Shown: positions 4,285-57,119, counted from the stretch's first letter. The stretch is 64,000 nt of DNA from an uncultured virus (IMG/VR IMGVR_UViG_3300030202_002218) (IMGVR_UViG_3300030202_002218); one strand, 5' to 3'. The notes: generated by a model from the sequence alone, not told the origin. Numbers and translations: made by a program.

Positions 4285-5954
4285 TGCCTTACACTGTCCC
4301 AACACCAACAAACGCAACATACGCAGGGAGAAGATACGGGCGCGCTAAAGAAGTGCATAATGAAATAGGCGCAATTGCAGAAAAACCAACATTTGTTGAC
4401 AATGCAGTTCACCACGCAGTGTATGAATCAACACAATCAACCAGCAAAAAAACACAAGTGAGCAAACCAAATCAAAAACATTTTCAGCCAACACACCCTC
4501 GACGCTATCGAATAAGTGAAGAACAATCATCAATACGATTAGCGCATACTACACACGAAGATAGTCCATTTTTCAACGGAGAGCAACTAAGCGCAACATC
4601 AAGCAGACCTATGTTGCTGATAGCCGAAGAAGACGATGCGTTAAGATTGCGAACTCAATCAGTTAATACAACAGCAAAGGGAGTGCGAGTTGAGTTAACC
4701 AACATGAGAGGTAAAAGTATCACTAATTATGGCATGGGCGATACATCACATGTTCGCGCTGGACAAACAATTAGCGTTGGTATGAGGTCAACCGATTTAG
4801 TTGAGAAACTATTTGATAAAGCGTTGCATGGTTTAAACAGCGCGTCATCAAAGGGGGTAAGCACTTTGTTTATTGCGCAAAACTTCAATTCAACAGTAGT
4901 GCCAACAGCAGTTCGATTTGTAGGCAGACATGACCATTTCATTATGTATTACGATAAGTTTGGAAATTTCTTATACGCGCCTAAAATTTTCAACAACAAG
5001 GACCGTCAGTTAGGAACACAACGAGGTGTTGCTAAAACAAAGATTGACCCAATCGTTGATGTCGCAAACAGGATTGTCGTCAAAGGAAACGGTATCGCTC
5101 TCAATGATTCTCTTAGCATAACAGTTGATGACGCAGAAGAACAGAAAAAGCGTGGCTCAATTAAAGAAATGAAAGTAAAAGACCCCACTGTCAACAACGA
5201 ATCGAAAGGTCGAACAGCGGCGAGTCAACTGTTGCGTTTGAATAAGAAAGCGCAAGGAGCATTGCAATCAAACATGCACGCGCAATCTTGGGACTTTGAA
5301 CCGGGTGATATTGTTGATTATGATTCTGCAATTGGAAAAGTGCAACAAGCAATTATTGAATTAGAACACAGCGCAAGCGGAACATCAAATTTTCAATTGC
5401 TTTCTTATGAAGCAGGTCTTGAGGCTGTTATCAATTCATTTGGTGACAGCGCGGATTTAGACGATGAAGAGTTTGAGATGAATAGCAGTGAACAAATCGC
5501 TGTTCTTAACAAGAGTGGTATTGGTTCAAGTAAAATAAGAATGCGCGGAGTATTGACTGTCCGCCCTGTTATTGACAAACTGACAAGAACGAGAACAAGC
5601 GCGGTCAATACAGGCTCGGATATACACGCGGGTATCTTATTAGGACATCGCAACAACGGATACGGTGCAGGTCGGTCTGCTCTTGGGTTTGGTATTACAC
5701 CGCGCATAAACGGAACACATGCGGCGGGGGCTATCACGGTCACCAGCACAGCCGGATTTGCTGATAGTGGTCACTTGATACTTGATAACAAATCCTTTGT
5801 GTCATATAGCGGTAAGACAGCAACCACCTTCACAGGGGTAAGTTTGGTAAGCGGAGCCGCCATAGCCTCACCTATCGCGGAGATTCGTATGCTCCGCCCT
5901 CGCGGACATGAGATGAGAACAGTGAAGGGTAAGAAGATTAGGAGGAAGATTTGA
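4284..5954 (+). CDS. Putative tail/baseplate hub-like protein
   Basis: About 556 aa; segments such as YYDKFGNFLY, ANRIVVKG and WDFEPGDIV resemble hub/late-control-D-type tail proteins; coupled to the upstream gene by a GTGATG overlap. Confidence 0.5.
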   Translation: MPYTVPTPTNATYAGRRYGRAKEVHNEIGAIAEKPTFVDNAVHHAVYESTQSTSKKTQVSKPNQKHFQPTHPRRYRISEEQSSIRLAHTTHEDSPFFNGEQLSATSSRPMLLIAEEDDALRLRTQSVNTTAKGVRVELTNMRGKSITNYGMGDTSHVRAGQTISVGMRSTDLVEKLFDKALHGLNSASSKGVSTLFIAQNFNSTVVPTAVRFVGRHDHFIMYYDKFGNFLYAPKIFNNKDRQLGTQRGVAKTKIDPIVDVANRIVVKGNGIALNDSLSITVDDAEEQKKRGSIKEMKVKDPTVNNESKGRTAASQLLRLNKKAQGALQSNMHAQSWDFEPGDIVDYDSAIGKVQQAIIELEHSASGTSNFQLLSYEAGLEAVINSFGDSADLDDEEFEMNSSEQIAVLNKSGIGSSKIRMRGVLTVRPVIDKLTRTRTSAVNTGSDIHAGILLGHRNNGYGAGRSALGFGITPRINGTHAAGAITVTSTAGFADSGHLILDNKSFVSYSGKTATTFTGVSLVSGAAIASPIAEIRMLRPRGHEMRTVKGKKIRRKI

Positions 5955-6421
5955 TGAACGCGTTTGAAGAGGCATGGGGGTTGCTCAAAGAAGATAACAT
6001 GCCTTTTGACATAGAAGATTTTGACATGGGAGATGCACAACCTCAACCGGCGATAACGATGGATTGGATAGACCATAACACAATGCGACAACATCCCAAC
6101 AAAGTATTTCTCTTCGGAGATAACCACCAAAGAGCAGGGCGCGGCGGTCAAGCCAAAGTGATGCGAGGACACCCTCAAGCAGTCGGCATCCGAACAAAAC
6201 ATGCGCCTTCAATGCGCTCAAGCGCGATGTGGACTGATGACACCTACGACGAAAATGTGCGCATGATTGATGAAGACATCAACCAAGCACTTTCACACGG
6301 CAAACAAATCGTCATTCCGTCAGCGGGAATAGGAACAGGGCTTGCGCGCCTCCCACAGAACGCACCACGCACAAATCAATATCTGCAATCACGCCTCAAC
6401 GCGCTTCGGGGGATTGAATAA
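5954..6421 (+). CDS. Macrodomain-like protein with N-terminal AWGLLK leader
   Basis: VFLFGDN..GRGGQA and IVIPSAGIGTGLA parallel the macrodomain N..GGG and PxIGTG motifs; GGAGG Shine-Dalgarno upstream. Confidence 0.55.
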   Translation: MNAFEEAWGLLKEDNMPFDIEDFDMGDAQPQPAITMDWIDHNTMRQHPNKVFLFGDNHQRAGRGGQAKVMRGHPQAVGIRTKHAPSMRSSAMWTDDTYDENVRMIDEDINQALSHGKQIVIPSAGIGTGLARLPQNAPRTNQYLQSRLNALRGIE

Positions 6422-9077: not shown

Positions 9078-9081
9078 TACT

Positions 9082-9810: not shown

Positions 9811-9821
9811 TAGGTGATAAT

Positions 9822-11808: not shown

Positions 11809-11817
11809 GGTGCGCGC

Positions 11818-31696: not shown

Positions 31697-31710
31697 GCGG
31701 GATAAGGCTT

Positions 31711-36672: not shown

Positions 36673-36674
36673 AT

Positions 36675-41087: not shown

Positions 41088-41148
41088 GTAAAACACTCCG
41101 TTCTTGCAAACGCGCTCATCATTCCATGAGCAACATCAGTCAAGGGGG

Positions 41149-41270
41149 TGGGGAGGGGTGCATCTATTCAAAGGAAAGTGAAAAGATGAATAGCGAGGGA
41201 TGCATGATGCACCGACCTCCCCATGAGAAGGGTGATGATTTACGGTATCAACAAACGAGTGTGGTTCATA
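41149..41270 (-). ncRNA. Putative structured RNA element downstream of the DUF932 gene (copy A)
   Basis: Shares CAAACGAGTGTG and flanking sequence with 48376-48419; small hairpin with an ACCGTAA loop followed by a long GGTGCATC/GATGCACC hairpin. Confidence 0.5.
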
Positions 41271-41299
41271 CAGGGGTAGGGGAGTTAGTAAGTATCAAA

Positions 41300-43360
41300 T
41301 TACTTCTTGTTAGCAATCTTTACTTGCTCAATCTTGTATTCCCAAGTGTCCATGAAGGCAGGGATTTCTGTGATTGGAGTCATTACTTTCTTACCATTTG
41401 TCTTTGCGCTGTAAGGAATCTTGAATTGGTCGGGGTTATCACTCAACCATTGACCCATAGCATTGAAGTCATCAACAGGTTCACCGGTGTGCGCGGCGTA
41501 AGCATTGACAGCACCCATAGCAATGTCTTCAAGAAGGTTTGCGGCTTTGTCCGATTTCTTCATCAACAGTTCAATACCTTGCTTGCTTCCGTGAAGAACT
41601 CTCTTACCATCAGTGAAGATAGGGTTGTGAGTAATCGTGCCAGTCAAAACTTGCGCGGCGTGGAATGCACTACCGACTGCGGCTTTGTCTGCTTCGGTCT
41701 TATCCAAAGCGACATAGTTAACATCGGGGTTCATCCAACCTTGCATCATAGCATTGTAAGCGTGTCCGTGTCCAACCTTGACAGCATCTTTGGTCATCAT
41801 TGCGGCAGTCACAACTAAGTTTCCGTCTTTGTCCTTCGGGATTTGGTCAATGTCACCAGCCTTGATAGTCAACTTAGGTTGAGATACAAGTCCATGCTTG
41901 GCGAATGAGGTCATCACTTTGTCAAACACATTTGCTTCGATAGGAATGTGTCGTAAGATGTGCATAGCAATCAAGTTCTTACGAGATTCAAGAAGCGCAT
42001 TGCCAAGTTGGTCAGCAAACAGTTGAGGGTCGAACTCCGAAACAACACCTTTCATGTGTCGAATCTTGTTTCGGTCACCAGCCATCAGTAGTGCTTGAAC
42101 TCCACCGCGTGCGGCAAGGTTGCCACAGTAAGTGCGGAGAACAGTCATGAATGCTTGGAGAGCAGACTTACCATCGTGAGCGTTGATGATTGATACACCA
42201 ACACGATGTCCACCTTCTTCTTCGACAAGCGCGTCGCTGATTCTGTTAGCAGAAAGATTGACATAACCAAAGTTGCTAAGTGACTTAGCAGATTCGTTGC
42301 GTGTCTTGGTGCTGAATGCAGTGAGGTCAAGGTTGAGCATAGCACGCGCACCCTTGTTGAAAGCGAACGCGTCGTGACTGATGAGTTCAGTTCCCGACTC
42401 AAGTTCATACTTGAATTTGTTATCACCTATATCCACTTTCTTGTAGACGCAACCGTTAGCCATGTTGATGCCTCGGCAAGTATCAATGACAGGGTTGAAT
42501 ACATCGGGGTGTTCAACTACCTCAAAACCAGCACCAGCGGCGCGGTTGATACAATGTCCAAGTGGTTCATCTTCTGTCGCAAGAGTTGGGTTGAAGATAG
42601 CGTTGATTCGATTGTCACCTTTTGCTGTGGTAATGTCGTGGTAAGTAGTTGTTGATTGACCAGTAGTTGGGTCAACTGTCACATTACGCGCAACCAATTC
42701 GTATGTCTTGGTGCGGAAGTTCCATGCACCAACATTCTCATGTCGCTTTCCACTAACCATAGCCTTGCTGATGTCGCTTGACATCGTTGCTTTGATTGCT
42801 TCGGATTCAGCGTAGCGTTCTTGGCGTGCCTTTTCAGCATCCAAGATTGCTTTCGTCTTCTTCTTGGCAGTCTTTTCTGCGGCTTCTTCAACGGTTTCAT
42901 TCTCATCAAGAACAAAGTCTGCGAGGTCAACACCAAGCGCGTCACCAAAGTTCGGCACTTCATCGTCGTGTGTCGCATCTGTCATGTCAAACACAGGGGT
43001 GTCATCGTTGCTTGGTGTCGCATCTGTCATGTCAAACACAAGGTCGTCATCGTCGGATGCTTGGTAGACTTCACCAAACTCAATCCACATGTCAGCAATG
43101 ACTTTCAGCACAGCGTCGCCGTCAGTATCGTAAGTGTAGTTTGAGGCTACACTAATATCAACACTGTTGACTTTCGCGTCTTCCAACAAGAACACAGTCC
43201 AGTTTGAACCGTGTTGTATGGTGTGCTTGATGCACGCATTAGGAACGAACTTCTGTCCTTCCCATGCGTTAGATTCAATCACCTTCATGTCGTTCTTTTC
43301 ATCTTGCGCTACACCAATAACGATGGTGCGCGGGGCTTCATTTTTCTTAGGGTCTTTCAT
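41300..43360 (-). CDS. DUF932-domain protein with acidic N-terminal extension
   Basis: IINAHDGKSA...LRTYCGN...IRH matches DUF932 (N.HDG...R..C.N...H); GGAG-like SD. Confidence 0.75.
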   Translation of the reverse strand: MKDPKKNEAPRTIVIGVAQDEKNDMKVIESNAWEGQKFVPNACIKHTIQHGSNWTVFLLEDAKVNSVDISVASNYTYDTDGDAVLKVIADMWIEFGEVYQASDDDDLVFDMTDATPSNDDTPVFDMTDATHDDEVPNFGDALGVDLADFVLDENETVEEAAEKTAKKKTKAILDAEKARQERYAESEAIKATMSSDISKAMVSGKRHENVGAWNFRTKTYELVARNVTVDPTTGQSTTTYHDITTAKGDNRINAIFNPTLATEDEPLGHCINRAAGAGFEVVEHPDVFNPVIDTCRGINMANGCVYKKVDIGDNKFKYELESGTELISHDAFAFNKGARAMLNLDLTAFSTKTRNESAKSLSNFGYVNLSANRISDALVEEEGGHRVGVSIINAHDGKSALQAFMTVLRTYCGNLAARGGVQALLMAGDRNKIRHMKGVVSEFDPQLFADQLGNALLESRKNLIAMHILRHIPIEANVFDKVMTSFAKHGLVSQPKLTIKAGDIDQIPKDKDGNLVVTAAMMTKDAVKVGHGHAYNAMMQGWMNPDVNYVALDKTEADKAAVGSAFHAAQVLTGTITHNPIFTDGKRVLHGSKQGIELLMKKSDKAANLLEDIAMGAVNAYAAHTGEPVDDFNAMGQWLSDNPDQFKIPYSAKTNGKKVMTPITEIPAFMDTWEYKIEQVKIANKK
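42970..43040. repeat. 26-bp direct repeat (45-nt period) encoding VFDMTDAT twice
   Basis: GTGTCGCATCTGTCATGTCAAACACA at 42970-42995 and 43015-43040. Confidence 0.9.
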
Positions 43361-43362
43361 AT

Positions 43363-44004
43363 TTAATCCTCCTTATTTTTGTGTCCGTTGGACTGTGATG
43401 TGACATCGCTTTCGATGTCGGGGCTTTCGCTCATGTCAAAATCATCCATGTCGAATGTGATTTCTTCTTCTGCGGCGCGCGCCATAGAATCAGATTCGAG
43501 CGACGGTATAAGAACATTCTCATCCGCGTCTATTAGATTTGCAATCTCATCGTGCATGTCAAACTCAAACTCCGAGAAGATAATATCCTCTTCGGTCATG
43601 CGTTTGTCTTGAATATCTTGAGCGTCTTGTTCAGCGATGAGTTGTTCAATCGCTTCGGGTGTATGGTTGCGAGCAAACTTGTCAAAGGTAAGTGAGCAAA
43701 TGCTTACTCCACAATTAGAGTCATCGCAACAGTAGTGTGTGTTCTCCATCTTACCTTGTTGAATTTTGTAAGACAATGCTTTCCATTGTCCACCACAACG
43801 AGGGCATTCGCGAACATACTGTGGTGGTATGTGTGACATGTTCCTGTGCGGGTTGAGATACTTCTCCTTCAAAGGGCTTTGAGGTCGAACAAATCCATTC
43901 ATGACAATCATGTATTCACCATCACCAAGACTATTGGTAGCCATGCTGATGACTGTGTGCTTGTCGTCAAGTAGCGTGTGAAAATCTTGTGTGCTGAAAC
44001 TCAT
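43363..44004 (-). CDS. Zn-ribbon protein with acidic FDM-repeat tail
   Basis: CPRC...CC...C; C-terminal EFEFDM and ITFDMDDFDM. Confidence 0.65.
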   Translation of the reverse strand: MSFSTQDFHTLLDDKHTVISMATNSLGDGEYMIVMNGFVRPQSPLKEKYLNPHRNMSHIPPQYVRECPRCGGQWKALSYKIQQGKMENTHYCCDDSNCGVSICSLTFDKFARNHTPEAIEQLIAEQDAQDIQDKRMTEEDIIFSEFEFDMHDEIANLIDADENVLIPSLESDSMARAAEEEITFDMDDFDMSESPDIESDVTSQSNGHKNKED

Positions 44005-44375
44005 TGTGAATCCCCCGTTGGTTCAAAGCCAAGCAAGTCACATGCCAACTCATGCATCAGTTGATTGATTGCGGCTGTCACATCAGCATCTTCAACAACG
44101 GGTTGCATCTCTCTCCACTTTGCATTCATGTAGCAGTATGCGCTTGGTTTGTCACTGTAATAGTTTGGATTAGCGCGGTATTTCTCAAGCGTTCTTTCCA
44201 TCGCTTGGTCGTAGGTTTTGTAGCCGTAGTTAGCCATCAAATCCATAGCCTCACGCATGAGGCTGTTGCTGTCAGTATTTCCATTGTCAATTGCGTTGAG
44301 GTTGTCAACTGCCATCTGTCTTCTGTCTTCTTTCAATTCTTCTTCATTCATTTGTTCCACCTTCGGTGTTGTCAT
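44001..44375 (-). CDS. Hypothetical protein
   Basis: 124 aa in the gene run. Confidence 0.55.
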   Translation of the reverse strand: MTTPKVEQMNEEELKEDRRQMAVDNLNAIDNGNTDSNSLMREAMDLMANYGYKTYDQAMERTLEKYRANPNYYSDKPSAYCYMNAKWREMQPVVEDADVTAAINQLMHELACDLLGFEPTGDSQ

Positions 44376-44604
44376 CCATACTCATGATGTATTCATCATG
44401 CGCGTGGAGAATAGGAATGACATAACTCATTCGTGCGGCAAGCGCACCAAGTTCTGTCGCGGGACCGATGAGTTGTGACCCATCGGGAGAGTTGATGAAC
44501 ACGATTCGGTCATGAACAAGTGTGCCGTAAGGCATCTTGAGAATAACTTCGCGCCCAATGTCTTCATCTGTCCAACCATCTTGAGGGATAGGTGTTGGCT
44601 TCAT
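44344..44604 (-). CDS. Hypothetical protein
   Basis: 86 aa, GGAGG SD. Confidence 0.55.
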   Translation of the reverse strand: MKPTPIPQDGWTDEDIGREVILKMPYGTLVHDRIVFINSPDGSQLIGPATELGALAARMSYVIPILHAHDEYIMSMDDNTEGGTNE

Positions 44605-44891
44605 TAGTCTTCGCCTCCTGTTGTTAATGTAGCAATGTAGAAATCCGCATCGCTGACTTCATCAATCACAAGTGAGTAATCACCTTCGGCAATCAGCATT
44701 AGGTCGCGCCCCTTCAAGTTGGGTAGTAAGTTAGTGATGAAGTATAGACGCGCCGCTGTATCTTTTACTTCTTCTCTAAAAGAATTAGAAGTGTATCTAT
44801 CAACATGAGTAATGTAGTTAGGGTGTATAACAAAGTTAAGGAATCCATCTTCGTTCTTTTGTTTTGGAAACTTTATTTCATATCCAGTCAT
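44604..44891 (-). CDS. Hypothetical protein
   Basis: 95 aa, GGTGA SD. Confidence 0.55.
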   Translation of the reverse strand: MTGYEIKFPKQKNEDGFLNFVIHPNYITHVDRYTSNSFREEVKDTAARLYFITNLLPNLKGRDLMLIAEGDYSLVIDEVSDADFYIATLTTGGED

Positions 44892-45550
44892 TCTTTCACC
44901 ACCAAGTTTCCGTGTTCAAAGTGCCAGTCCATCAATGCAGTCTTGCGCGGTTCTGCTTTGGTTGACCAAGAGGGATAGTCATGGTGCATTGGTGAGTAGG
45001 TATCTTTACCAAGCGCGGCAAAGATAGCAACGATAACATTGTCATGCAAGTCTTGGTTCAATGCTTCAAGTGATTCAAGCAACTGTTCTGCTGTGAACTC
45101 ATGCTTGACTGTGGACACAAGAGCATCGCGTGGTTCTGCAAGAAACTTTCCGTCGCGGGTCATCTTCTTGACAAACAGTTCGGGGTCAAAGTCTTTCACC
45201 GCGTCTTTCTTGTGCTGTGGTGGTGTGTAGAAATCAACCAAGTTCTCGTCAAAGAATTTCGAGTCATCTAACAGTGCGTGTTGGTCGCTGTGTGATAGAG
45301 TATCGTTGTATGAATATTCAATAGGGAATGAATCTTTGTGTATAACAATCTTGCCAGTCTTCTTAGACGCGTAGTATAAACTTGACTGCACTTGCATCCA
45401 AGTCATGTTCCTACCTGCACCTCTTCTGTCAACGCGAGCGTGAACTTGCTTGGCATTCAGTCGTTCATTCAGTATTGTGCTACCTTTCATGATGCGTGTC
45501 ACAAATTCGTAGTTCTTTTCGTTTGGTCTTTTTGTAAATTTATTATTCAA
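44888..45550 (-). CDS. Hypothetical protein (possible N-terminal wHTH)
   Basis: Probable TTG start at 45550 just after GGAGG. Confidence 0.55.
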   Translation of the reverse strand: MNNKFTKRPNEKNYEFVTRIMKGSTILNERLNAKQVHARVDRRGAGRNMTWMQVQSSLYYASKKTGKIVIHKDSFPIEYSYNDTLSHSDQHALLDDSKFFDENLVDFYTPPQHKKDAVKDFDPELFVKKMTRDGKFLAEPRDALVSTVKHEFTAEQLLESLEALNQDLHDNVIVAIFAALGKDTYSPMHHDYPSWSTKAEPRKTALMDWHFEHGNLVVKE

Positions 45551-45696
45551 TTTAAATCCTCCTTGTTTGTTTGGACTTCTTCTTCTTGTTGAAGAGCGCG
45601 TGTCCAAAGACGCGTGTTTGATTGTGGTTTTCCATCAGTGTATTCCCAAAAGATATACTCTTCGGTTTCGATTTTGACAACGAGTTGTTCACTCAT
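45547..45696 (-). CDS. Microprotein (49 aa, not in the track)
   Basis: MSEQLVVKIETEEYIFWEYTDGKPQ...; fills the gap with overlaps at both ends. Confidence 0.5.
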   Translation of the reverse strand: MSEQLVVKIETEEYIFWEYTDGKPQSNTRLWTRALQQEEEVQTNKEDLN

Positions 45697-46079
45697 TCTT
45701 CTTCACCTACTAATGTCAACATGTGTGCGTCGATTCGTGCCACCAATTCTGCTTTAGTGCCACTGACTTTCAAGCCGTGAGATTTGCATACTTCTTTCAG
45801 CACTGCGTTCTTCATGTTAGAGTAAATGCTGATGCTATCTACTTGAGATACGCGTCGGCTTACTTTTCTCTTTAGCATGTAGTTTGCTGTTCCGTATTTT
45901 GTCTTGACGCGAATGTAGTTCTTACACTTGCTCAAGTATGCTTTGCCACCATCAAACTCAATGCTTGTTGGTTGGTCGCGGTATCCCCACGGTTTGTTAT
46001 TCTCTTTGATGTTCTCTCTCAATTGAGTGAGAGCATCTTCATGTGTTGGCTTTTCTTCTGCTAAGGTTTCGTTAATCAT
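45693..46079 (-). CDS. SAP-domain DNA-binding protein
   Basis: C-terminal MKNAVLKEVCKSHGLKVSGTKAELVARI is a canonical SAP motif. Confidence 0.8.
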   Translation of the reverse strand: MINETLAEEKPTHEDALTQLRENIKENNKPWGYRDQPTSIEFDGGKAYLSKCKNYIRVKTKYGTANYMLKRKVSRRVSQVDSISIYSNMKNAVLKEVCKSHGLKVSGTKAELVARIDAHMLTLVGEEE

Positions 46080-46101: not shown

Positions 46102-47679
46102 TCAAGCATTTTGCTTGTGGACTATGTGTGCTGGGTTGATACCGTTAGTGTGGTATCGTATCTTCTCATGAGGTATTCCTGTATCATGAATGAGGTTAAA
46201 GAACGAGCGATAGTCACCGCTTTCTAAATCGTTATACACGAACATCCAAATGTCCTTGTGCTTCGCGCCTCGGAAGACACGACCAATCGTTTGAATACGA
46301 GAGCGCACATTGTTTGTGCCACTCATCATGATGACACCATCCATGTCGGGTGCGTTGAAACCCTCCTTCAATGATTTACATGTGAGTAAGATGTCGGAGG
46401 CTGACCTCTCCCATCGCTTGAGTTCTTTCGTTGCGTCTTCTCCATACTGTGCAAGTCGTCGCTTGAATGCTGGGTTGTTGAGTTCGGGGTATGTTTGATA
46501 GACATGTGGTGGTAGTGTAGTAAGACCGCTGTGATATACATGAGGGTTGATACCAATGTTCTTACACATACCATTGAGTCTTTCGATACCAAAGATTGTT
46601 TCATGGAACAGCGCATACTTCTTACCGATGTTGCTTGTCAATACTTGTTGCGCCGCGTCGAATCTGTTCTCCATCTCATTCATCAATCGCTTGCGTTCAT
46701 TACAACGCGCTTGATATATTCCTAATGCTTGACGAGCCTCACCACTCAATCCCCAATTGGTTCGGGCAAAGAGGTTGTTCGCGTTGCCACCTTCTTCACT
46801 CACTAACTTGTAGCACTTGTGATAGAGTTTGGATATGCGTTCTGTCAAATCTTCATACTCAATCAGTTCGGATTGAGTCATGTTGATGTGAACGACATGG
46901 AATGTAAAGTCGAGTGCATCATCACCGTTGCGTGACTGTTCGATACCTTCGATTAGTTTGAGGTGAAACTGAATACCAACATCGCAGTCTTCACCACTAC
47001 AAACAGAACCCACAGGAGATGTATTCATTTCACACATAACACAGACACCATCACTACGGTTTGGTGTTGCGCTAAGTAGAAGACAACCATCACCTTGAAA
47101 GGTTCGGAGTGTGCGAAGCGCAACCTCTCCACCTGCTCGGTGACATTCATCAAGAACCATTAGCAGTGGTCTGTTCTTCAAGTGATTGAGTGCTTTCACT
47201 TTCTTGAGCGAAAGGTAAGTGGTGATATAAACATCCTTGTGAGGAGCGCGTTCATTATATCCACCACCAATACGACCGCATGTGAGTTGCCACATACGAA
47301 CAGTGGTTCGCGTTTGATTGAGTAGTTGCTTGGATGGCACAACAAATACGATAGCGGGTCTGCCTGTCTTTCTTGTTGGTGAACGAAGGTGTCCGTCGTG
47401 TAGCCAATTGTGCATGACAGTAATAGCAAGGCGAGTCTTACCTGCACCTGTCGCGGCTGACACACACATTCGAGGCTTCTCAAGACCGAGCCACTTGTTG
47501 TATGCTTTTGCTTGCCATAGACGCGCACCCTCTTCCAACTGTTCACCTGTTCGGTTGCTTGGTAGCGATGCTTTCATCTTAGCATGGTCTTCGGCAGTCA
47601 AGACTGTGCTTGCTACGCTTTCATTCATATCAAACTCTATTTCTTCTTCGACATTCATGTCAAATATTATTTCATTCAT
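46102..47679 (-). CDS. Superfamily 2 helicase (XPB/Rad25/ResIII-like)
   Basis: AATGAGKT, DECH, LSATP.R.DG, EGFNAP and QTIGRVFR. Confidence 0.9.
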   Translation of the reverse strand: MNEIIFDMNVEEEIEFDMNESVASTVLTAEDHAKMKASLPSNRTGEQLEEGARLWQAKAYNKWLGLEKPRMCVSAATGAGKTRLAITVMHNWLHDGHLRSPTRKTGRPAIVFVVPSKQLLNQTRTTVRMWQLTCGRIGGGYNERAPHKDVYITTYLSLKKVKALNHLKNRPLLMVLDECHRAGGEVALRTLRTFQGDGCLLLSATPNRSDGVCVMCEMNTSPVGSVCSGEDCDVGIQFHLKLIEGIEQSRNGDDALDFTFHVVHINMTQSELIEYEDLTERISKLYHKCYKLVSEEGGNANNLFARTNWGLSGEARQALGIYQARCNERKRLMNEMENRFDAAQQVLTSNIGKKYALFHETIFGIERLNGMCKNIGINPHVYHSGLTTLPPHVYQTYPELNNPAFKRRLAQYGEDATKELKRWERSASDILLTCKSLKEGFNAPDMDGVIMMSGTNNVRSRIQTIGRVFRGAKHKDIWMFVYNDLESGDYRSFFNLIHDTGIPHEKIRYHTNGINPAHIVHKQNA

Positions 47680-48444: not shown

Positions 48445-49554
48445 TCAAAGGGTGTCAAGTGAACCAATGTCAAGGTTGTTGTAGTCCTCATCAGTCATTC
48501 TACCGGATGATGTAGGAGTCCAGTCATTCTTAACCAAAGGCCAGTGCCAAGACTGTGCTTGACCACCAATCACCTTTGAGTCTGCCACTTCTTCGTTGAT
48601 ACCAATGAATGCTCGGAACGCTTCACGGAAGTCATCGGATACAGACCAAGCAAATCGCGCTGTCCAAAAGTTTCTCTCGGATTCAAGGACAACATAAGCG
48701 GCCATTTGAAGAGTGAATCTCTTAGCGGCTTGGTAGTTGCCAGCACCACATAGTTCGGGGAACCAAGAGCGAGTCTTGTATGTCTTACCGGTCTTTTCAT
48801 CAGTCCACTTCTTGTTTCGCTTTGGAGCGATACAAAGAATATCAGCGGCGGCCTTGAGAAGTTGAGTATCCCAGTCAATGGCATTCGACAATTGCTTCGG
48901 GTTCAATTCCTTTCGACCGGAGAGAGTCATTTCATAACCGTCACCGTTCTTGTTGGTCTTGTGAAGGACTGCCTTAGCCATGTTGATTTCTTTGTCGGTG
49001 ACACCTTTGATTGCCAGTTTGACACCTTTGTTCCAATCATCAAGGACAAAGGAAACCTCGGTAGCGTCTGCCAGTTCTTCTTCTTCTTCATCGTCAAAGT
49101 CTTCATCGTCATCAATGCCAGCAGATTCAGTCGAAGTCATGCTGAAATCAATTCCCGCATCTTCTTCTTCTTCTTCTTCTTCATCGAAGTGCGAAGCCAC
49201 AAAGTCGAATGCCAATTGGCACAAGTTGTTTAGGCTCTTTGCTTCTGTCAACATCAGTTTGAATACTTCAAGGACTTTCACTTTGTCAGTCTTGGCATTG
49301 ATACCGGTGGTATTGCCTTTCTTGTAGTAAGCGTCGATACGGCTATGTTTGATACCCATATTCTTTGCCAAACGGATGATGAAAGTGGCGTTGTTGGTTG
49401 CTTTCGCACTGCCGCTGTTCTTCACAGTCTTTACTTCGTTCATTTTCTCCCCCAATGTATTATAGAAAGCCTCGTTGTCTTTAGCGACAACTACCGCTTT
49501 GCACATTACACCAAGTGTATTGTTCAGTTCATTCCTCATGCTTGTTTTTTCCAT
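48445..49554 (-). CDS. First early gene; protein with a central hyper-acidic linker
   Basis: 369 aa; GAGGT SD; its own promoter repeat and terminator; FDEEEEEEEDAGIDFSM...DDDEDFDDEEEEE. Confidence 0.75.
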   Translation of the reverse strand: MEKTSMRNELNNTLGVMCKAVVVAKDNEAFYNTLGEKMNEVKTVKNSGSAKATNNATFIIRLAKNMGIKHSRIDAYYKKGNTTGINAKTDKVKVLEVFKLMLTEAKSLNNLCQLAFDFVASHFDEEEEEEEDAGIDFSMTSTESAGIDDDEDFDDEEEEELADATEVSFVLDDWNKGVKLAIKGVTDKEINMAKAVLHKTNKNGDGYEMTLSGRKELNPKQLSNAIDWDTQLLKAAADILCIAPKRNKKWTDEKTGKTYKTRSWFPELCGAGNYQAAKRFTLQMAAYVVLESERNFWTARFAWSVSDDFREAFRAFIGINEEVADSKVIGGQAQSWHWPLVKNDWTPTSSGRMTDEDYNNLDIGSLDTL

Positions 49555-49809: not shown

Positions 49810-49893
49810 AGCGCGAATACTTCGCGCTTTACCGCGAGTCCCTCGCGGAGTATTTGCCCGTCGCGTTAGCCGGAGTCGCGCTCGCGGCGCGAC
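49810..49893. other. Three tandem perfect GC-rich inverted repeats at the early/late divergence point
   Basis: AGCGCGAA-TAC-TTCGCGCT (49810-49828), CCGCGAG-TCC-CTCGCGG (49832-49848) and GTCGCGC-TCGCG-GCGCGAC (49875-49893). Confidence 0.7.
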
Positions 49894-50015
49894 AATTTGC
49901 CCTCCTTAACCGCGTGCGAAATACAGATATTTTTTTCGTGGGGGTCAAAAAAAAATTCCAGCCATTTTTTTATCAACCGCTATGTTCAAGGGTGTGGTTG
50001 TCCTCCCATCCACTA

Positions 50016-53000
50016 ATGCGTCCGAGTGTCCGTGTTGTTAAGTCGGTTGACGAGGGACTAATCCTCAAGGAAACCAATCAACAGAAAAAAGACAAACGCA
50101 AAGCAGAACGCGATGCGGCAAGAAAAGCCAAAAAAGCGGCACGCAAAGCAAAAAAACGCGGTGAGAAACCACCAAAGCAAGTAAAAGTTGTTGACAAAAA
50201 ACCCGCCGCGGAGGAAAAATTTGACCCGTTTGAAGGAAAAAATATCGACCCCGCACAAGAAAAGGCAAGGGAGAAAATAAAAGAGGCGGGTGAAAAAAGA
50301 CGCGCTGAAAACGCTAAACGCGTAGATGCTTTGCGCGAAAAAGCAAGAAAAAGTCGCGAAAGAAGAAAGAAAGAACAAGAAGAGTCCGGGTTAAGCCCCG
50401 AAGAGTTCCGCGAAATGAAGGAACTTGAAAGACTCGTAGCCGAAGAAAAGAAGGCTAAAACTGTCAAAGTAGTTGACCCTCCCGCTAAAGAAGAACCTCC
50501 TAAAGAAGAACCTCCTAAAGAAGAACCTCCTAAAGAAGAAAAGCCAAAGACCGTCAAAGTAGTTGACTCCGCAAAAGATGACAAAGAAGGAAAAGGCGGT
50601 AAAACACAAAGAGGTTTCGCGTCTTTAGCACCTTACATGGCTGAATTAGTCAGTCGATACAAAGATGAAGAAATAGACGCGACTGAATTTTACGAAGACA
50701 TAGTTTTCGCTAACAATATGCTTTTGGGTCGTGCTTTAGGACAAGAGAAGGATGAAATGCTACAAGAGCGCGAAGATGGCTTTCCCGCTATGCTTCACGA
50801 ACCATTCTTAAACGCGCCTGTTATGATGCATTTGAAGAGGTTGTCGAATGAGTTCCCCGAACTCAAAGATGTGCAAAAAGCAGATGAAGAAATGAACGGT
50901 AGTTTAGAAAATGCTATGGGCGGAACGCGAGGAATACGCGCTGATATTTCATCCTTCATCGCAGACCCATTGAATGAGGGCAGACCTCATCAAGAAAAAG
51001 ACATCAATGGTATTTACAAACTTCTTAACAAATACGACCACCCTCTCGGTGTCACGCTGTCGGCGGAGATACCAAAGAGTGACCGTATCGTTCCCACTTA
51101 CAGACCAAGAGAAGCGCGAAAAATTCGTGTTGCTGGTCGAATGCAAGACCCTTCATTTGAACAAGAGATGAACCGATTACGCGATGAGCAGATGGAGAAC
51201 TTGAAGTTTAGAGAAGATAAACGATTTACTACGGACCGCGATAAAGGCGGAGCGAGTAGATTTTACGATAAGTTGTTCGGAGAAGGTGAAGTCAACCTAA
51301 GAAGAGAAAAAGGACAAGAAGGCCAGTCAAGTTTTCAACTTAAAAACCCTTCATCATCAACAACACAATCCATACTCAACCAAGTGCGAGATATTGCGCG
51401 TGAAGAATCTGTTGATGAAAAAACCGCTTACAAAAAAATGATGGAGAAGTTCAACGATTATATGATTTCATTGACAGGGAACAAAGCGTTCGGAACATCG
51501 GGGCGCGCAGGTAGAACTGGACAAGAAATAGAAGTTGGGCGTTCGCCGGACGCAATTACGCCTTCTATGGTTGATGCCGCGAAACAACTTGGGTTGTCTT
51601 CTGCTGTGGCAAACATGCCCGATTTGTTAGTGAGTCGATACATGAAAGACCCTAAAAGTGCATTCAGTCAAAAAACGCGTAATGAATTGGCCGATGAGTT
51701 AGCGGGTATGGGTCAAGAAGGTTTTCACCCAACGCTAATATCTGCTATGGGTGAAGAAGGACTCTTGAGTAGTCTATTTGGTGATGAAAGCGCGGTGACT
51801 GTCGAGGGTGCTGGGCCGGGTGGTTCACAAGAAGAAGTGGAACAAAGAGCCAGTGAAGCGCGAAGAGCAAGATTTGGTGGGGTTGCAACTGAATCTTCAA
51901 TGATGGAACCCGAAGATGAACTCGCGGTTGTTCAAGGTAAAAGAAAATTATCACCATCTCAACGAATGACACAACTTGAGCGACAATTCAATCAAGGTGA
52001 TATTGACGAGTATGAATACGAAATGCAACGCGCGGCAATCAATTTAGACCAACACAAATTAGACTCGGATGCTGAATTAGGTGGCTTAACTGGTAATGAT
52101 TTCGAGGTTGGTCACGCGTATCACGGTTTGAGTGAAGAAAAACTCATCGAACAATCAAATAATTTTGTTGACAACCTCATCGGTATGGCGCGCATAATGC
52201 GAGAAATACGACACAAAGCATACGATAACAATGGTGCGGAAACAGACCAAGAAAAACACGATGTTGATAAGAAGTTGGAGGCTATTGGTTTAACCGCAGA
52301 AAACTTTGTTGCTTTTGGTAATATTGAAAACGCAACATACGAAGACAAGCAACGCTACAACAAACTCGATGAAATCATAAGCCCGGAACAATTAGTTAAT
52401 ACAGCAAAAAAAGGTGATAAGCCAAAAATGAAGACTATTGCTGGCACAGGCACTTTAGCAGTAATGCTCCCTATTATGACTTCGCGGCTGAATCGACAAC
52501 ACGACATGATGAAAGATATTGGAATGTCAAATGTTGATTTAGTGAAAGCGGCGATGAAATACGCTAATGCTGATATGGGTGTGAATGGATACAAGGAGGC
52601 TTTTGCTTCGTTAGGGGCGCAAGCACAAAAAGGTAAATTGAACACATATCCAATATATCGTTTGTTGCAGTATTTGAGGAAAAAAGGATACCGTGAAGCA
52701 CTCGATGAAGCGCACCATCAAAAAGTCGAAGAACAACAACGAAAGTTTGCAAAGAACCACACTGCGCGTCAAGCAATGAAAGAAGAGGCTAAATTCACAC
52801 CTGCTTCGGAATACGATATTGAGGCAGGTGCGCCCGAACACATGGAACATATACTCCACGACAAAGAAAAGTGCCTTTCATGTCACGAAGACCGATTTGG
52901 CACAAGAGATGCACCAACAGCGCGAGCGCATTCACCAGTTAAGGGTGATAAATCACCCTTTGCTCACAAGTCTATCACACTCCCGCAATTTACAAATTAC

Positions 53001-56000
53001 AAAAAACGCGGACAAGATTTCCCATTAGATGTCACCGGCTCTACTGAAAATGAAACTTCACTCGCCGCTATATTGAGGCACATTTACCCCGAAGATGACA
53101 GATACAACCACAAAAAGTTGATGAGTCGAAAACAAAAATATCTTGATAATCCAAAATTAAACACTTACGAAGGGTTCATCAAACCTACAACTCGACAGTT
53201 CAAAAATAAAATCAAGCAAGCGGTTATCACAGGTCACCCACGCGCGGCTAACATTTTCAAGAAGTTTGGACTTTACCGAACAAAGGAGAACGGAATAGCA
53301 ACTGGCCCAGCAGGGATGAGCAACAAAGAGTTGGTTGCTTCTTCATTCTTCATGAACAACGACGATTCAATCGACAAGCACCAAGAATCAATGCGTAAGA
53401 GAACACTTCTATCGACGCGTTTCAATGCGATTACTGATGCTATGCATTTCATGGAAGAACTCGCAGACGGCGACTATGGTAGCAAAATCAAACCGGGTGC
53501 GCTAAAGAGTAGAGCCAACCGAATCGCGTTATTGGGTGAGATGATAAATGAACCCACTAAAGGTATTCAAAAAGAAAATAGAAAGATTGAGAAAAGAAAG
53601 CGGGAAATTGATACTTACAAAAACCTATATCGACAATATATAGATGATAAAATGGCTTATGATGCTAATTTAGCAAAAACGAAACCAACATATCAATTGT
53701 TTAATGAATTGACAGGAAAAATTCGCGGTGAATTTGAAACAAAAGAAGATGCAGAAAAAGCAATCAAGAATATGAAAGATAAAGACAACAAACCCGATAC
53801 TTACATGCAAAGTATCCACTCGGTTCAAGAACAACGCGGTGAATATGATTCACCGGGTCAAATAGCAATGATTGAAGCACAGGCTGATGAAATCGACAAG
53901 AAATATGGTAAAATGTTGATGCTCCGTAAGAAGAAATTGAGAGAGATAAAATCATACGAAAAGAAAGCCGCTAAGTTGAAAGACGCGAGCGAAGATAACA
54001 TCAATCGAACAAATGAATACATGCTTGGCGCGTTTATCAATTCGGGCGATAAGATGGCTAACATATTCACCAAGATGAAAAAATCACCGGAGGGTGTAAG
54101 TCAACACGCTTTGATGGGTATGCTCGCTGAATTGCATGATGATATGTATGGCGATGATGATTATGATTCGGTGCTTAGAGGCGACGCGAGTGGGAGAACG
54201 GACAAAGACTTCACTCATTCACTAAGCAACTATAAACTCGGTAGAATGGGCGAAATGGGTGGAACGGGTGTTATGAGTTTGACCAATAACAAAGCCCTCC
54301 CGCGAATCAATTCAATCAACCAACTGCTCGCTCATCGCATTCAAATGGGATTCCCTCTCACAGAAGAAGATATTGAGCGCGCTAAGGGTATGTTGCATGA
54401 TGCTGATATGGCGGATACTGTTGACAAAGAAGATTATAATGAGTGGTCGAAAGGTTTGACCATAGATGATGATGTTGATTTCAATATGTCCGAATTAGAA
54501 CATGAGCATCATGATGATTCCGAAGACGACTTGGGGTTGCTAACAGAAGAAGAGGCGGCGCGAAGAGAACAAAACTCACACTTTACAAAAGGTAGTGAAA
54601 AGGCGATAGAGAACGGTGACATTGAAGCCCATAATTTAGTATCCAATTGGAGAGGTAATGCACCAACTTTGTGCGGTGTATGTCACGGACATCGGTTCGT
54701 GACAAGAGATGAAGCGGTATCATACATTCGTCATCGCATACCCGGTATGGAAGGTGTAGGTCGCGAGAGTTCAAAGATGAACAACTATATCGCTAACAAA
54801 ATGAGGCCGCGTGGGTTTGCTTCTTACGATGAACACCCTATGGCTGATGAAATGGACCCGAATGAACACGAACAATTCGCGTGTCCAGCCTGTGAGCATT
54901 CAAGTGACTATGTTCAAGGTGGTAAATGTAGCAACGGTCTTTGTGGTGATTGTTTTGGCACAGGTGAGCGCGACCCAACGGATGATGAACATATCCAAGA
55001 AGGATACATAGACGCGGAGGGAAATAAAATTGATGGAAAAAACCACCACTATTCGCATAATGGAATGGTGGGTGAGAAGTTCGATTACCTCAACCAACTT
55101 CTGCTAAGACATGCAGAAATGGCACAATCGGGTGAAATACCGGATTATTTGAAAGATATAGTCAAACCTCAATCACCAGTGTGGGAGCAGTTTGATAAGC
55201 ATGTAGGTTCGGGTAAATTTCAAACATTTGAAGATGAGCGTGAAGCGCGCAGAAAGAAGAAATTAGAACCGTTGGTGATTGACCCTAACGCGCCGGAACT
55301 ACCCGCCCCACCACGCGCGAGAAGTCAATTCCGAATCGAACAACCCGACGAAGGTGGTATGCCGCAGATTGACTTCGATATGAGTGAAGAAAAACCTTTC
55401 CAACTAAATATTGTGAACAATTTAGCAATGCAAAAGCATCATGAGATATTTTTGAAGAAGCATCTTGACATTCTATACAAATCGGCTCTTCAAGGTCAAC
55501 CCCAAATGAAAGAAGAAATTAACGAATTATACGCCAGCATCGTTAATGACCCAGCACTACAAGACATTCACAATGACGAAGACCACCATTTGATTGAAAA
55601 AATACACGAACTACAAGAAATCGCGGATGCGAATTATGTTGATGATATTAGCGACATCGCGAGTTTGAGTGCTAAAGAGAGAAAGGCGATGCGCGCAAAA
55701 CGAAGACAGTTGCCTGTTGACGAAAACGGTGATTTGCAATTGACTATGGATGATGTGTTTGGTGGAAATGCGCCAATGTCTTTCAACGCCTTCGATAAAT
55801 ATACTCCTAAACACGGACACATGCAAACAGAAACCGAAATACGAGAAGGGTTATTTGAGCCGGGAGAAGACAATCAACCAAAACCAGTGACAATGAAGCA
55901 ATTGAGAAGTTTTTTCATGGGGCGACCGGATGTATTGAAAATGCTCAATAGAATTGAAGCCAGTGAAAAATACAAATCGGAGAGTGCTGAAAAAATTAAA

Positions 56001-57119
56001 AGCGCGCTTGATAGTGTTGAAAAACCATTAGTGGCGCGAAAAACAGGCAATATGTATAGCGAATCACTCAATGATATTTTGAAGCAGTTTGGTGAAAAAC
56101 CAATGACACAAGAGATGGGTTCTTATCAATTGACTTACAGTGATGAAGCGTTAAAAGCATTTAAAGAAGCGGGAGCAACAAATGTTAATTCATTGATGAC
56201 TGTCAAAAACAAAAATAATCTAAATCGTGCATTAGATGAAGGATACACCCGCGAAAGAAGTGCAACGATGAAACCGTTATGGCAAGAGTATGTCATGCGA
56301 AAAGCACTTCAACACTTCATGTCGAATGTGAATAACCCTCTTCAATACCCAACAATACCAGCAGGTATCAATCAAAATAACTTCGCTGAAATGGTGGGAG
56401 AAAACAGCGGGTTGTTTCAATTGATGAAAGATGAGGCCGCGAAAGTTGCTGGTTATGAAGACGAAGAAGATTTGGAAAAGAAACTCAACATGTCAACAAG
56501 CCCGACTGTCGGCGGTGTAAAGTTGAATGTTAACGAGTTTAAGGCAGATGTTTTGAAGAATGCGACACACGAAGACTCACATCAACTGCCGATGGGTTAT
56601 ATTCGATACGATAAGAAGGGTAAAGGCAAAATGGTTGCTAAAGACGCTGAAACTATACTGAATGAAAGTCAAGAACAATTGTTAAAACCTAATGATATGA
56701 AGAAATACGAAAACGCGATAAGAACTGTCAACTACAACATGAGGCCAAACTACATGAGAATGAAAGAGATTAGGAGTGTATTGCATGGCGAAGACGGCAA
56801 ACACGACGGCTACGATGGTTATGAAGAACTTGCAACAGCATTTACCAACAAAGCATTACCGGCGGAACAACAAGCGTTGTTAGAAACCAGTGGTCCGTTG
56901 TTGAAATTATCTCATCGACACCTTACTCCAATTTCTTTTGCTGACGCGCAATCGTATGCTTTAGCCGCGGAAGAAAATAAGAAATTCCAAGAAGGACTGA
57001 AAGCGCGACGAGAAGGAACATTGTTAGGTCCAGTGCCTATCACTCAACCAATTCAGCAACCAATTCAACAACCAATTCAACAACCCCAACAACAAATTGA
57101 TTTCAACATGGATTCTTGA
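50016..57119 (+). CDS. Giant (~2367 aa) charged protein, putative internal virion/ejection protein
   Basis: Probable start ATG 50016 (MRPSVRVVKS); K/E-rich helical protein; KEEPP and QPIQ repeats; several CxxC motifs; no enzymatic motif recognised. Confidence 0.7.
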   Translation: MRPSVRVVKSVDEGLILKETNQQKKDKRKAERDAARKAKKAARKAKKRGEKPPKQVKVVDKKPAAEEKFDPFEGKNIDPAQEKAREKIKEAGEKRRAENAKRVDALREKARKSRERRKKEQEESGLSPEEFREMKELERLVAEEKKAKTVKVVDPPAKEEPPKEEPPKEEPPKEEKPKTVKVVDSAKDDKEGKGGKTQRGFASLAPYMAELVSRYKDEEIDATEFYEDIVFANNMLLGRALGQEKDEMLQEREDGFPAMLHEPFLNAPVMMHLKRLSNEFPELKDVQKADEEMNGSLENAMGGTRGIRADISSFIADPLNEGRPHQEKDINGIYKLLNKYDHPLGVTLSAEIPKSDRIVPTYRPREARKIRVAGRMQDPSFEQEMNRLRDEQMENLKFREDKRFTTDRDKGGASRFYDKLFGEGEVNLRREKGQEGQSSFQLKNPSSSTTQSILNQVRDIAREESVDEKTAYKKMMEKFNDYMISLTGNKAFGTSGRAGRTGQEIEVGRSPDAITPSMVDAAKQLGLSSAVANMPDLLVSRYMKDPKSAFSQKTRNELADELAGMGQEGFHPTLISAMGEEGLLSSLFGDESAVTVEGAGPGGSQEEVEQRASEARRARFGGVATESSMMEPEDELAVVQGKRKLSPSQRMTQLERQFNQGDIDEYEYEMQRAAINLDQHKLDSDAELGGLTGNDFEVGHAYHGLSEEKLIEQSNNFVDNLIGMARIMREIRHKAYDNNGAETDQEKHDVDKKLEAIGLTAENFVAFGNIENATYEDKQRYNKLDEIISPEQLVNTAKKGDKPKMKTIAGTGTLAVMLPIMTSRLNRQHDMMKDIGMSNVDLVKAAMKYANADMGVNGYKEAFASLGAQAQKGKLNTYPIYRLLQYLRKKGYREALDEAHHQKVEEQQRKFAKNHTARQAMKEEAKFTPASEYDIEAGAPEHMEHILHDKEKCLSCHEDRFGTRDAPTARAHSPVKGDKSPFAHKSITLPQFTNYKKRGQDFPLDVTGSTENETSLAAILRHIYPEDDRYNHKKLMSRKQKYLDNPKLNTYEGFIKPTTRQFKNKIKQAVITGHPRAANIFKKFGLYRTKENGIATGPAGMSNKELVASSFFMNNDDSIDKHQESMRKRTLLSTRFNAITDAMHFMEELADGDYGSKIKPGALKSRANRIALLGEMINEPTKGIQKENRKIEKRKREIDTYKNLYRQYIDDKMAYDANLAKTKPTYQLFNELTGKIRGEFETKEDAEKAIKNMKDKDNKPDTYMQSIHSVQEQRGEYDSPGQIAMIEAQADEIDKKYGKMLMLRKKKLREIKSYEKKAAKLKDASEDNINRTNEYMLGAFINSGDKMANIFTKMKKSPEGVSQHALMGMLAELHDDMYGDDDYDSVLRGDASGRTDKDFTHSLSNYKLGRMGEMGGTGVMSLTNNKALPRINSINQLLAHRIQMGFPLTEEDIERAKGMLHDADMADTVDKEDYNEWSKGLTIDDDVDFNMSELEHEHHDDSEDDLGLLTEEEAARREQNSHFTKGSEKAIENGDIEAHNLVSNWRGNAPTLCGVCHGHRFVTRDEAVSYIRHRIPGMEGVGRESSKMNNYIANKMRPRGFASYDEHPMADEMDPNEHEQFACPACEHSSDYVQGGKCSNGLCGDCFGTGERDPTDDEHIQEGYIDAEGNKIDGKNHHYSHNGMVGEKFDYLNQLLLRHAEMAQSGEIPDYLKDIVKPQSPVWEQFDKHVGSGKFQTFEDEREARRKKKLEPLVIDPNAPELPAPPRARSQFRIEQPDEGGMPQIDFDMSEEKPFQLNIVNNLAMQKHHEIFLKKHLDILYKSALQGQPQMKEEINELYASIVNDPALQDIHNDEDHHLIEKIHELQEIADANYVDDISDIASLSAKERKAMRAKRRQLPVDENGDLQLTMDDVFGGNAPMSFNAFDKYTPKHGHMQTETEIREGLFEPGEDNQPKPVTMKQLRSFFMGRPDVLKMLNRIEASEKYKSESAEKIKSALDSVEKPLVARKTGNMYSESLNDILKQFGEKPMTQEMGSYQLTYSDEALKAFKEAGATNVNSLMTVKNKNNLNRALDEGYTRERSATMKPLWQEYVMRKALQHFMSNVNNPLQYPTIPAGINQNNFAEMVGENSGLFQLMKDEAAKVAGYEDEEDLEKKLNMSTSPTVGGVKLNVNEFKADVLKNATHEDSHQLPMGYIRYDKKGKGKMVAKDAETILNESQEQLLKPNDMKKYENAIRTVNYNMRPNYMRMKEIRSVLHGEDGKHDGYDGYEELATAFTNKALPAEQQALLETSGPLLKLSHRHLTPISFADAQSYALAAEENKKFQEGLKARREGTLLGPVPITQPIQQPIQQPIQQPQQQIDFNMDS
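50485..50540 (+). repeat. 15-bp tandem repeat (KEEPP)x3.7
   Basis: CTAAAGAAGAACCTC units. Confidence 0.9.

Follow-up and report, generated by a model that had tools for sequence, protein, structure and literature searches.

Short docking peptides shared by several unrelated proteins are known from the PCNA-interacting protein (PIP) box, the sliding-clamp epitopes of phage T4 and the tails of SSB, the protein that binds single-stranded DNA, and these systems keep their letters across long evolutionary distances. The archaeal and eukaryotic PIP consensus reads Qxx[ILM]xx[FY][FY], and short linear motifs (SLiMs) also occur as multi-copy arrays on one platform, as with the DPF/FxDxF motifs of the AP2 appendage, the PxIxIT motifs of calcineurin and the PxVxL motifs of HP1. 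In T4, the epitopes of gp43, gp33 and gp55 for the clamp gp45 are short, hydrophobic and acidic (PMC2988020), placed on flexible linkers, interchangeable, and present also on proteins outside the replisome. The amino-acid tandem repeats of Borg genomes are described as fast-evolving, disorder-creating and SLiM-like (PMC9879509); they have unique nucleotide sequences, form long perfect nucleotide arrays, occur for the most part in extracellular or membrane proteins and recur among the members of a protein subfamily. Here we report that in the uncultured virus IMGVR_UViG_3300030202_002218, of which a 64-kb stretch was analyzed (hereafter the window), a peptide of the form hydrophobic-x-F-[D/N/S]-M recurs in six unrelated proteins, and that in related viruses these proteins share other letters in its place. 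The motif is probably the form that a multi-copy docking tag, private to each genome, takes in this virus.

Each of the known systems matches these tags in part. Like the T4 epitopes, the tags combine hydrophobic and acidic residues on a flexible tether and are borne by several unrelated viral proteins, which in T4 are read by one viral hub (PMC2988020). The T4 epitopes are C-terminal and occur on the polymerase too, whereas only 1 of 12 tags here is C-terminal, the family-B DNA polymerase (PolB) has none, and the tags stand in tandem with letters that are replaced wholesale between sister viruses. The PIP box, too, is one short docking peptide common to many clients of a hub and is often found at protein ends, but its hydrophobic residues fall at i, i+3 and i+4 rather than at the i, i+2 and i+4 of the tags, which are absent from PolB and from the RFC-like protein. 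With sequence context from -8 to +6, none of 13 sites fits the canonical PIP pattern Q..[ILMV]..[FYW][FYWLI], and the two matches to this pattern in the 69 open reading frames (ORFs) of the window are both internal and unrelated to the tags. A first-pass annotation of this DNA had compared the motif with a PIP box; given the lack of fitting sites and the untagged PolB and RFC-like ATPase, membership in that family is not supported. Eukaryotic SLiM arrays share with the tags weak hydrophobic-x-hydrophobic cores placed in tandem on floppy acidic segments, but keep conserved letters. Borg repeats (PMC9879509) likewise belong to archaeal extrachromosomal or viral genomes and are fast, short, disordered and SLiM-like, in comparable places of homologues; the tags differ in having one to four copies, mostly with no nucleotide repeat, across non-homologous proteins of one genome. 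The tags most resemble T4 epitopes and SLiM arrays in function and Borg repeats in evolutionary mode. They differ from both kinds in that a genome's non-homologous proteins have them in common and exchange them together. No published description of such tags was found in a search that did not extend to supplements. The words "motif," "repeat," and "acidic" are absent from the 2017 magrovirus paper (PMC5434244), a 2025 paper on Poseidoniales viruses has "motif" in two unrelated uses only, and literature on archaeal-virus short linear motifs or on DUF932, judged by titles and abstracts, held nothing bearing on the tags.

All 12 sites listed in the first-pass annotation are present where it had placed them, and they occupy six proteins. 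The DUF7831 protein (ORF 5951-6421; Pfam DUF7831, E 1.2e-38) has IEDFDM in its N-terminus (6011-6028, plus strand), with a second tag-like sequence, NMPFDI, upstream and a net charge of -7 within 10 amino acids on either side. The DUF932-like protein (ORF 41300-43360), with a weak Pfam match (E 1.1e-4; 22.5 bits, where the cut-off is 23), bears LVFDM (43028-43042, minus) and its tandem copy PVFDM (42983-42997, minus) in an acidic linker flanked by the conserved anchors DMWIEFGE and PNFGDAL. Also on the minus strand are FEFDM (43555-43569), ITFDM (43447-43461) and DDFDM (43432-43446), the last two five residues apart, in the tail of a 213-amino acid (aa) Zn-ribbon-like protein (ORF 43363-44004); IIFDM (47656-47670) and IEFDM (47626-47640) at the extreme N-terminus of a superfamily 2 (SF2) helicase (ORF 46102-47679; Pfam domains ResIII, DEAD and Helicase_C); and IDFSM (49138-49152) in the poly-Glu linker of a 369-aa protein (ORF 48445-49554). 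On the plus strand, a giant protein of 2421 aa (ORF 49854-57119) has internal VDFNM (54474-54488) and IDFDM (55368-55382, as MPQIDFDM) and the C-terminal IDFNMDS (57096-57116). A tag peptide of the window is EIIFDMNVEEEIEFDMN. Placement is internal for 9 of the 12 tags, N-terminal for two and C-terminal for one, so that only three lie at a protein end.

The six carriers are unrelated, as had been supposed: BLASTP among them gave no non-self match below E 0.01 (best E 0.044), and several of the weak matches are the tags themselves. The best match joins residues 347-381 of the DUF932-like protein (42218-42322, minus) to residues 602-635 of the giant protein (51657-51758, plus), with 45.7% identity over 35 residues and E 0.044 in a six-protein database, which is too weak to call. 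The absence of the motif from the core replisome was borne out as well, with no F[DNS]M in the ORFs between 13246 and 34905, PolB and the RFC-like ATPase included.

Enrichment over composition was assessed with 2000 per-protein shuffles across the 69 ORFs and with 1000 shuffles confined to blocks of 30 or 15 residues. The count of FDM is 10 where 1.66 would be expected, that of F[DNS]M is 13 (expected 4.35), and that of the annotation's own pattern, [ILVFD].F[DNS]M, is 11 (expected 1.23); none of the 2000 shuffles reached any of these counts, which answers the annotation's call for a comparison with shuffled proteins. The permuted tripeptides MDF, DFM, FMD, DMF and MFD occur one to four times each, with about 1.65 expected. 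When local composition was held by block shuffling, FDM was reached in 0 of 1000 trials at either block size and F[DNS]M in 0 and 1 of 1000. A composition artifact is thus ruled out, the observed counts being unreached by whole-protein and block shuffles. The pattern itself captures 10 of the 12 listed sites, missing IEDFDM and PVFDM, and adds one that had not been listed, VVFDM (59483-59497, plus; ORF 58736-59626). This site has net charge 0 and lies on the folded side of the charge-hydropathy plot, and VMIVFDMRQF is kept in a related genome (G002, below) where FDM is not the tag; because of this non-acidic, probably folded context and its retention there, we take VVFDM to be probably a chance match.

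Most of the sites lie in an acidic setting. Net charge is -5 or lower within 10 residues on either side at 11 of 13 F[DNS]M sites, compared with 7.6% of 728 Phe residues, and all 12 tags fall on the disordered side of the charge-hydropathy boundary, a weak proxy given that 46% of all 41-aa windows fall there too.

Codon usage points to the peptide as the unit of selection. Codons at F, D, N and S and at the flanking residues vary from gene to gene; TTYGAYATG occurs 12 times on both strands, and in 10 of these it encodes FDM, in frame and in the sense direction, the genes concerned being on either strand; and the N and S variants are encoded by other codons. The same variety of codons is seen in the corresponding tag of G002 (LDIG). 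Since codons differ and 10 of 12 DNA words are in-frame and sense, selection is on the peptide and not the DNA. A DNA-level element such as a protein-binding site or iteron is ruled out by this synonymous variation and by the specificity for frame and sense. The only recent DNA duplication among the tags is that of the two DUF932 copies, where a 39-nt direct repeat (42970-43008 and 43015-43053; 45-nt spacing) is 92% identical; the 26-bp repeat reported earlier is real and forms its identical head. This pair is also the only near-perfect nucleotide repeat of the Borg type, the tags of other genes differing in codons and flanks, which means that they are not copies of one DNA segment.

Comparison with related viruses revealed that the letters of the tag are replaced while its sites are kept. 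The window (69 ORFs by greedy calling, 95% covered, 20,383 aa) has Pfam matches to a thermosome subunit, PolB, an RFC-like AAA ATPase, an SNF2 helicase, ERCC4 and PD-(D/E)XK nucleases and a second SF2 helicase; its PHROGs matches comprise virion and tail-fiber proteins at the left end and, weakly, a processivity factor (ORF 24411-25166). The first paper on magroviruses (PMC5434244) gives SNF2 together with a thermosome as the pattern of group A, viruses of Marine Group II archaea. Comparison loci (L and G numbers) were drawn from IMG/VR and metagenomes, most of the viruses being partial contigs. The main comparator, G002, is syntenic with the window, 102,931 bp long and 98% complete, and its proteins are mostly 60-94% identical to those of the window; its major capsid protein (MCP), S78 prohead protease, TerL and tail-tube protein all map outside the part that the window covers. 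FDM is not enriched in G002. Instead, LD[IV]G[DTN]I[TND]I stands at the places aligned to the tag sites of four window proteins (the helicase N-terminus, the DUF932 linker, the Zn-ribbon-protein tail and an internal site of the giant protein), and D[IV]G[DTNSE][IV] occurs 11 times in G002 against 0.59 expected, a count reached by none of 300 shuffles.

About 20 tag classes were listed among DUF932 orthologues: FDM, GFLDM, NTMP[DS][IL]G, DDMxIDFG, EEFxF, PLMTLDFG, PDIDWG, LDIG, PFNF, [VT]SFTF, MFDLTL and TFDLDIG, MTLSL, DNPFAG, PLT, DELEDDG, DEFPAE, DTPSFD and EDMP. The LDIGDITID class was found in G002 and an M-F/Y-D-L-T-L class in L010/L120, and within each virus one class is repeated in its other carriers. 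The first-pass annotation had staked its proposal on conservation in orthologous linkers, and here the outcome is split. Every orthologue examined retains the position and the acidic tandem arrangement, whereas the letters persist only in the nearest relatives: L094 is identical and L095, at 88% DUF932 identity, has FDMTGA. In L096, L097 and L098 the DUF932 proteins are 85.5%, 80.6% and 74.6% identical to that of the window, and the tags are already of GFLDM or NTMP type. On this sequence comparison, the tag switches fast between viruses.

The other carriers behave in the same way. Among 39 helicase orthologues from a large protein collection, many, including most of those at about 50% identity or more, have an N-terminal tandem pair with lineage-specific letters, and several more distant ones lack it. 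At the aligned site, orthologues of the 369-aa protein bear their own virus's tag (AVDFG twice, DMSIDFG, TTMPxL twice, DDEFxF). The giant-protein site at 55368-55382 aligns with LDVGDINIG three times in G002, TIDFG twice in L004, DMNIDFG twice in L016 and MPKIEMNTMPEIKLN in L002, and the C-termini of this protein read ...AIDFEGDSQ in L016 and ...EVDFSQ in L004. A further carrier is the protein encoded directly upstream of TerL, which has its own virus's tag in all three genomes examined (G002, G003 and G004); its gene lies beyond the end of the window. The carriers form a fixed set: the SF2 helicase, the DUF932-like, 213-aa Zn-ribbon-like, 369-aa, 2421-aa and DUF7831 proteins, and in relatives the TerL-upstream protein.

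The classes have a common denominator, a hydrophobic core of two or three residues, usually at i and i+2, in an acidic setting (mean acidic fraction 0.32 within 8 residues on either side), usually in two to four copies. Even in the distant magroviruses L013 and L017 the DUF932 linker has two hydrophobic-acidic motifs. A Pro lies at most five residues upstream in 45 of 113 tag units, in frames such as MPQIDFDM, PDIDWG and PTIDFG; at that frequency P-x-hydrophobic-x-hydrophobic is a tendency and was rejected as a rule. MPQIDFDM of the window aligns with MPKIEMNTMPEIKLN of the closest relative, L002, and this alignment suggests that the classes reflect drift within a single extended, strand-like motif, each virus having fixed different sub-sites of it.

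Sharing within genomes was tested between two regions that are not homologous, the DUF932 linker and the tail of the Zn-ribbon protein, in the 22 dereplicated viruses with both; near-identical loci were left out, as was L103, whose linker looked frameshifted. Linker and tail had on average 3.64 hydrophobe-containing 3-mers in common when they came from one genome, compared with 0.34 when they came from different genomes (462 pairs), and the observed sum of sharing was reached by 0 of 10,000 permutations; because contigs are partial and labels are shared by descent, this is no count of independent switches. For 18 of the 22 viruses, no other tail matched the linker better than the virus's own did. 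Among the four misses, L096 had no shared 3-mer, and the window (WIN), L113 and L121 were outscored by the tail of a close relative.

The tags therefore exist, are enriched, are selected as peptide and covary within genomes; that they dock, and on what, we infer. The feature is real and statistically robust, and its pattern across genomes makes it very probably a docking or assembly tag. In the mechanism that we propose, the short hydrophobic core would lie as an extended strand in a groove on a single partner shared by all carriers. Electrostatic steering would come from the acidic flanks and avidity from the two to four tandem copies, and the carriers would thereby be gathered at one place. 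Because the letters are common to all carriers of a virus and different in sister viruses, the partner must change with the tag, which makes a virus-encoded reader or tag-tag pairing likelier than a conserved host hub. The first-pass annotation is partly supported: its core, a virus-wide docking tag on disordered acidic segments, is the best-supported reading and is strengthened by coherent replacement across carriers.

Four points count against this interpretation. In an unbiased tripeptide scan FDM ranks second, behind EEE, and its Poisson p of 9e-6 becomes borderline, about 0.07, after correction for 8000 tripeptides; since the tripeptide count alone is not decisive, the weight is carried by flanking context and the comparative data. 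With labels common by descent, the permutation test is strong for within-genome sharing and not for independent switching. In the DELEDDG, DEFPAE and PLT classes a lone hydrophobic residue is set in an acidic repeat, and one lock-and-key pocket remodelled across such classes is hard to picture. Finally, no candidate was accepted as reader, and in close relatives the genes neighboring DUF932 undergo no burst of change at the tag switch, the 148-aa protein aside.

For that 148-aa protein (37728-38174), identity drops from 90% in L095, where the tag is unchanged, to 59% in L098, where it has switched, but the protein was rejected because it has no match in the tag-bearing G007. The 171-aa family (38835-39350, minus) was set aside as reader because it has no burst at the tag switch (65% vs 60%); it was present in 15 of 15 larger loci examined, is 27-28% identical between the window and G002, and belongs to no Pfam family. 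The 106-aa helix-plus-barrel family (38518-38838, minus), with matches in G002, G003 and G007, also has no burst (72% vs 73%), and for the 188-aa and 324-aa families some tag-bearing loci gave no match. Ten of 11 aligned sequences of the 106-aa family, the 11th being incomplete, end in a second shared C-terminal tail, F[ND]PxTGE[FW]E, which also ends the unrelated 171-aa family in G002, L100, L009, L008 and L117. No homologous SLiM reader was seen in the Pfam, PHROGs or NCBIfam matches. A scan of genome contigs for a relative of the viral thermosome, as a route to host genomes and a host PIP consensus, found none. Searches of the DUF932-like protein against GenBank phages (tblastn) gave no match, and nothing usable came from the ESM Atlas for the 2421-aa protein, from NCBIfam for 18 window ORFs, or from PDB sequence searches with four replication-region ORFs and the DUF7831 protein.

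If there is a reader, a viral sliding clamp, a capsid, scaffold or portal surface that loads cargo, and another small viral protein each seem to us possible but individually unlikely, and alike in this; a domain of the 2421-aa protein is less likely, as is the absence of any separate reader, and a host protein is the most doubtful of all.

The likeliest rival, though we give it a low probability, is a specific form of the docking reading, in which the tags would bind a divergent sliding clamp that the virus itself encodes, much as T4 gp43, gp33 and gp55 have one epitope for gp45. A candidate is the 251-aa product of ORF 24411-25166 (minus), which matches phrog_947 weakly and nothing in Pfam; a profile of its family (30 relatives) gave seven matches in the PDB, all bacterial beta clamps, at E 0.075-0.44. 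Its sequence makes it a possible divergent viral sliding clamp and candidate reader of the tag. No gene in the replication block evolves faster: identities to its counterparts in G002, G007 and L015 are 67%, 54% and 29%, as against 82%, 79% and 51% for PolB, a pace like that of the carriers and not of the replisome. This pace would suit a reader, as would the T4 precedent of interchangeable hydrophobic-acidic epitopes that are not confined to the replisome (PMC2988020). Against this reading, PolB and the RFC-like ATPase have no tag, 9 of 12 tags are internal, and 0 of 13 sites fit the canonical PIP pattern. Moreover, the PolB (21857-24223, minus) tail KKISGIF[DE]VLGW...TPRPATYW is the same in the window and G002, whose tags are completely different, so docking of the polymerase does not covary with the tag; this tail is itself a candidate polymerase-to-clamp tail, separate from the tag.

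A second rival, for which we see only a slim chance, dispenses with a separate reader. The tags would pair with one another as beta-prone "stickers" with acidic gatekeeper flanks, and the carriers would co-assemble into a body or condensate. Short aggregation-prone segments are known to pair sequence-specifically, and self-pairing would explain why all carriers of a virus have the same letters, why the letters are free between viruses and why there are multiple copies. Many classes alternate hydrophobic and polar residues as strands do (IDFDM, EFVFIN, VSFTFV, LDIGDITIDV, GVIAI), but acidic flanks should repel one another, and DELEDDG, DEFPAE and PLT are not beta-prone. Cations or a very basic 428-aa protein might bridge the tags, and only identical letters would be compatible; the window does encode a strongly basic, low-complexity protein, at 61402-62688. 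This 428-aa protein (plus strand) has a pI of 10.2, a net charge of +27 and K/R-rich runs, and its gene lies between that of a helix-turn-helix (HTH) protein and the genes leading to TerL. It might serve the acidic tag regions as a counter-ion partner, or else condense DNA.

Just as improbable, in our estimate, is a role in capsid loading or ejection, in which the tags would be signals for the procapsid interior, scaffold or portal and the carriers would be packaged and delivered with the DNA, in the manner of encapsulin cargo-loading peptides or of T4's capsid-targeting sequence. Giant packaged anti-defense proteins are known in phages, and gene position offers some encouragement: the DUF7831 protein is encoded among tail genes, the 2421-aa gene heads a rightward operon leading to TerL, and a tagged protein stands directly upstream of TerL in G002, G003 and G004. 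Set against this, the MCP, the prohead protease and an adjacent 2015-aa protein of G002 have no tag in an acidic context, and four carriers are encoded at the start of a long leftward operon that also encodes the replisome. The "earliest genes" and "virion cargo" of the first-pass annotation are likewise readings of gene position.

Docking on a hub of the host, for example PCNA, RPA, the proteasome or the transcription machinery, or mimicry of the ligand of such a hub, is more doubtful still. Acidic-hydrophobic peptides on eukaryotic helicases do recruit them to RPA. Host hubs evolve slowly, however, and L096, L097 and L098 carry quite different tags although their DUF932 proteins are 75-86% identical to that of the window; a conserved hub such as PCNA, RPA or TBP, as first proposed, is hard to reconcile with such radical differences, and no tag fits the PIP pattern. 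The degron version of this idea would be costly for a peptide that is on seven proteins and kept by selection. The least probable view, that the tags are functionless by-products of tandem-repeat turnover in acidic disordered linkers and spread between genes by recombination, can cite the recent 39-nt duplication in DUF932, copy numbers that vary between relatives and the Borg repeats (PMC9879509), but codons and flanks differ between genes while the peptide is kept, as many as seven non-homologous proteins have one set of letters, and single unrepeated tags stand at protein ends.

Several other features of the window were noted. About 12 small ORFs in 31388-46079 (minus) end in GGEEE, VEEE, GGEQE, GDDE or similar; these ends are likely to reflect a Shine-Dalgarno-like GGAGG of the next, overlapping gene inside the 3' end, and the GG.E endings that follow the tags in Zn-ribbon-protein tails probably have the same cause and are not part of the tag. 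ORFs 35742-36242 and 36675-37187 (minus) are paralogues that start with M.FFVLDANP or MNIFVLDANP, the second belonging to the T4 endonuclease-V-type pyrimidine-dimer glycosylase family (Pyr_excise, Pfam E 1.9e-8). A 252-aa ORF (57973-58731, plus) has the small-GTPase motifs GPTMVGKTT, DIGGQ and NKAD and is 89-93% identical in relatives; its surroundings (57192-60214, plus) encode small membrane proteins and Q/G-rich proteins.

In contrast to the known systems, one tag is here common to up to seven non-homologous proteins and is swapped coherently between viruses whose core proteins are still 65-90% identical, and it is this private, concerted evolution that makes the system interesting. The tags could, as a more speculative and unlikely extension, form a private peptide address code, a sticker evolving in concert across about seven proteins and perhaps pairing like with like, which would keep apart the takeover, replication and packaging machinery of co-infecting siblings. 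The roughly 20 orthogonal tag sets are a natural series, and such short orthogonal tags may serve as protein-engineering parts. If a reader were found, it would become tractable to follow how a hub and many short linear motifs co-evolve fast in uncultured, globally abundant archaeal viruses, and the finding would give a functional grouping to the DUF932-like, 2421-aa, 369-aa and Zn-ribbon proteins, which at present have no known role.

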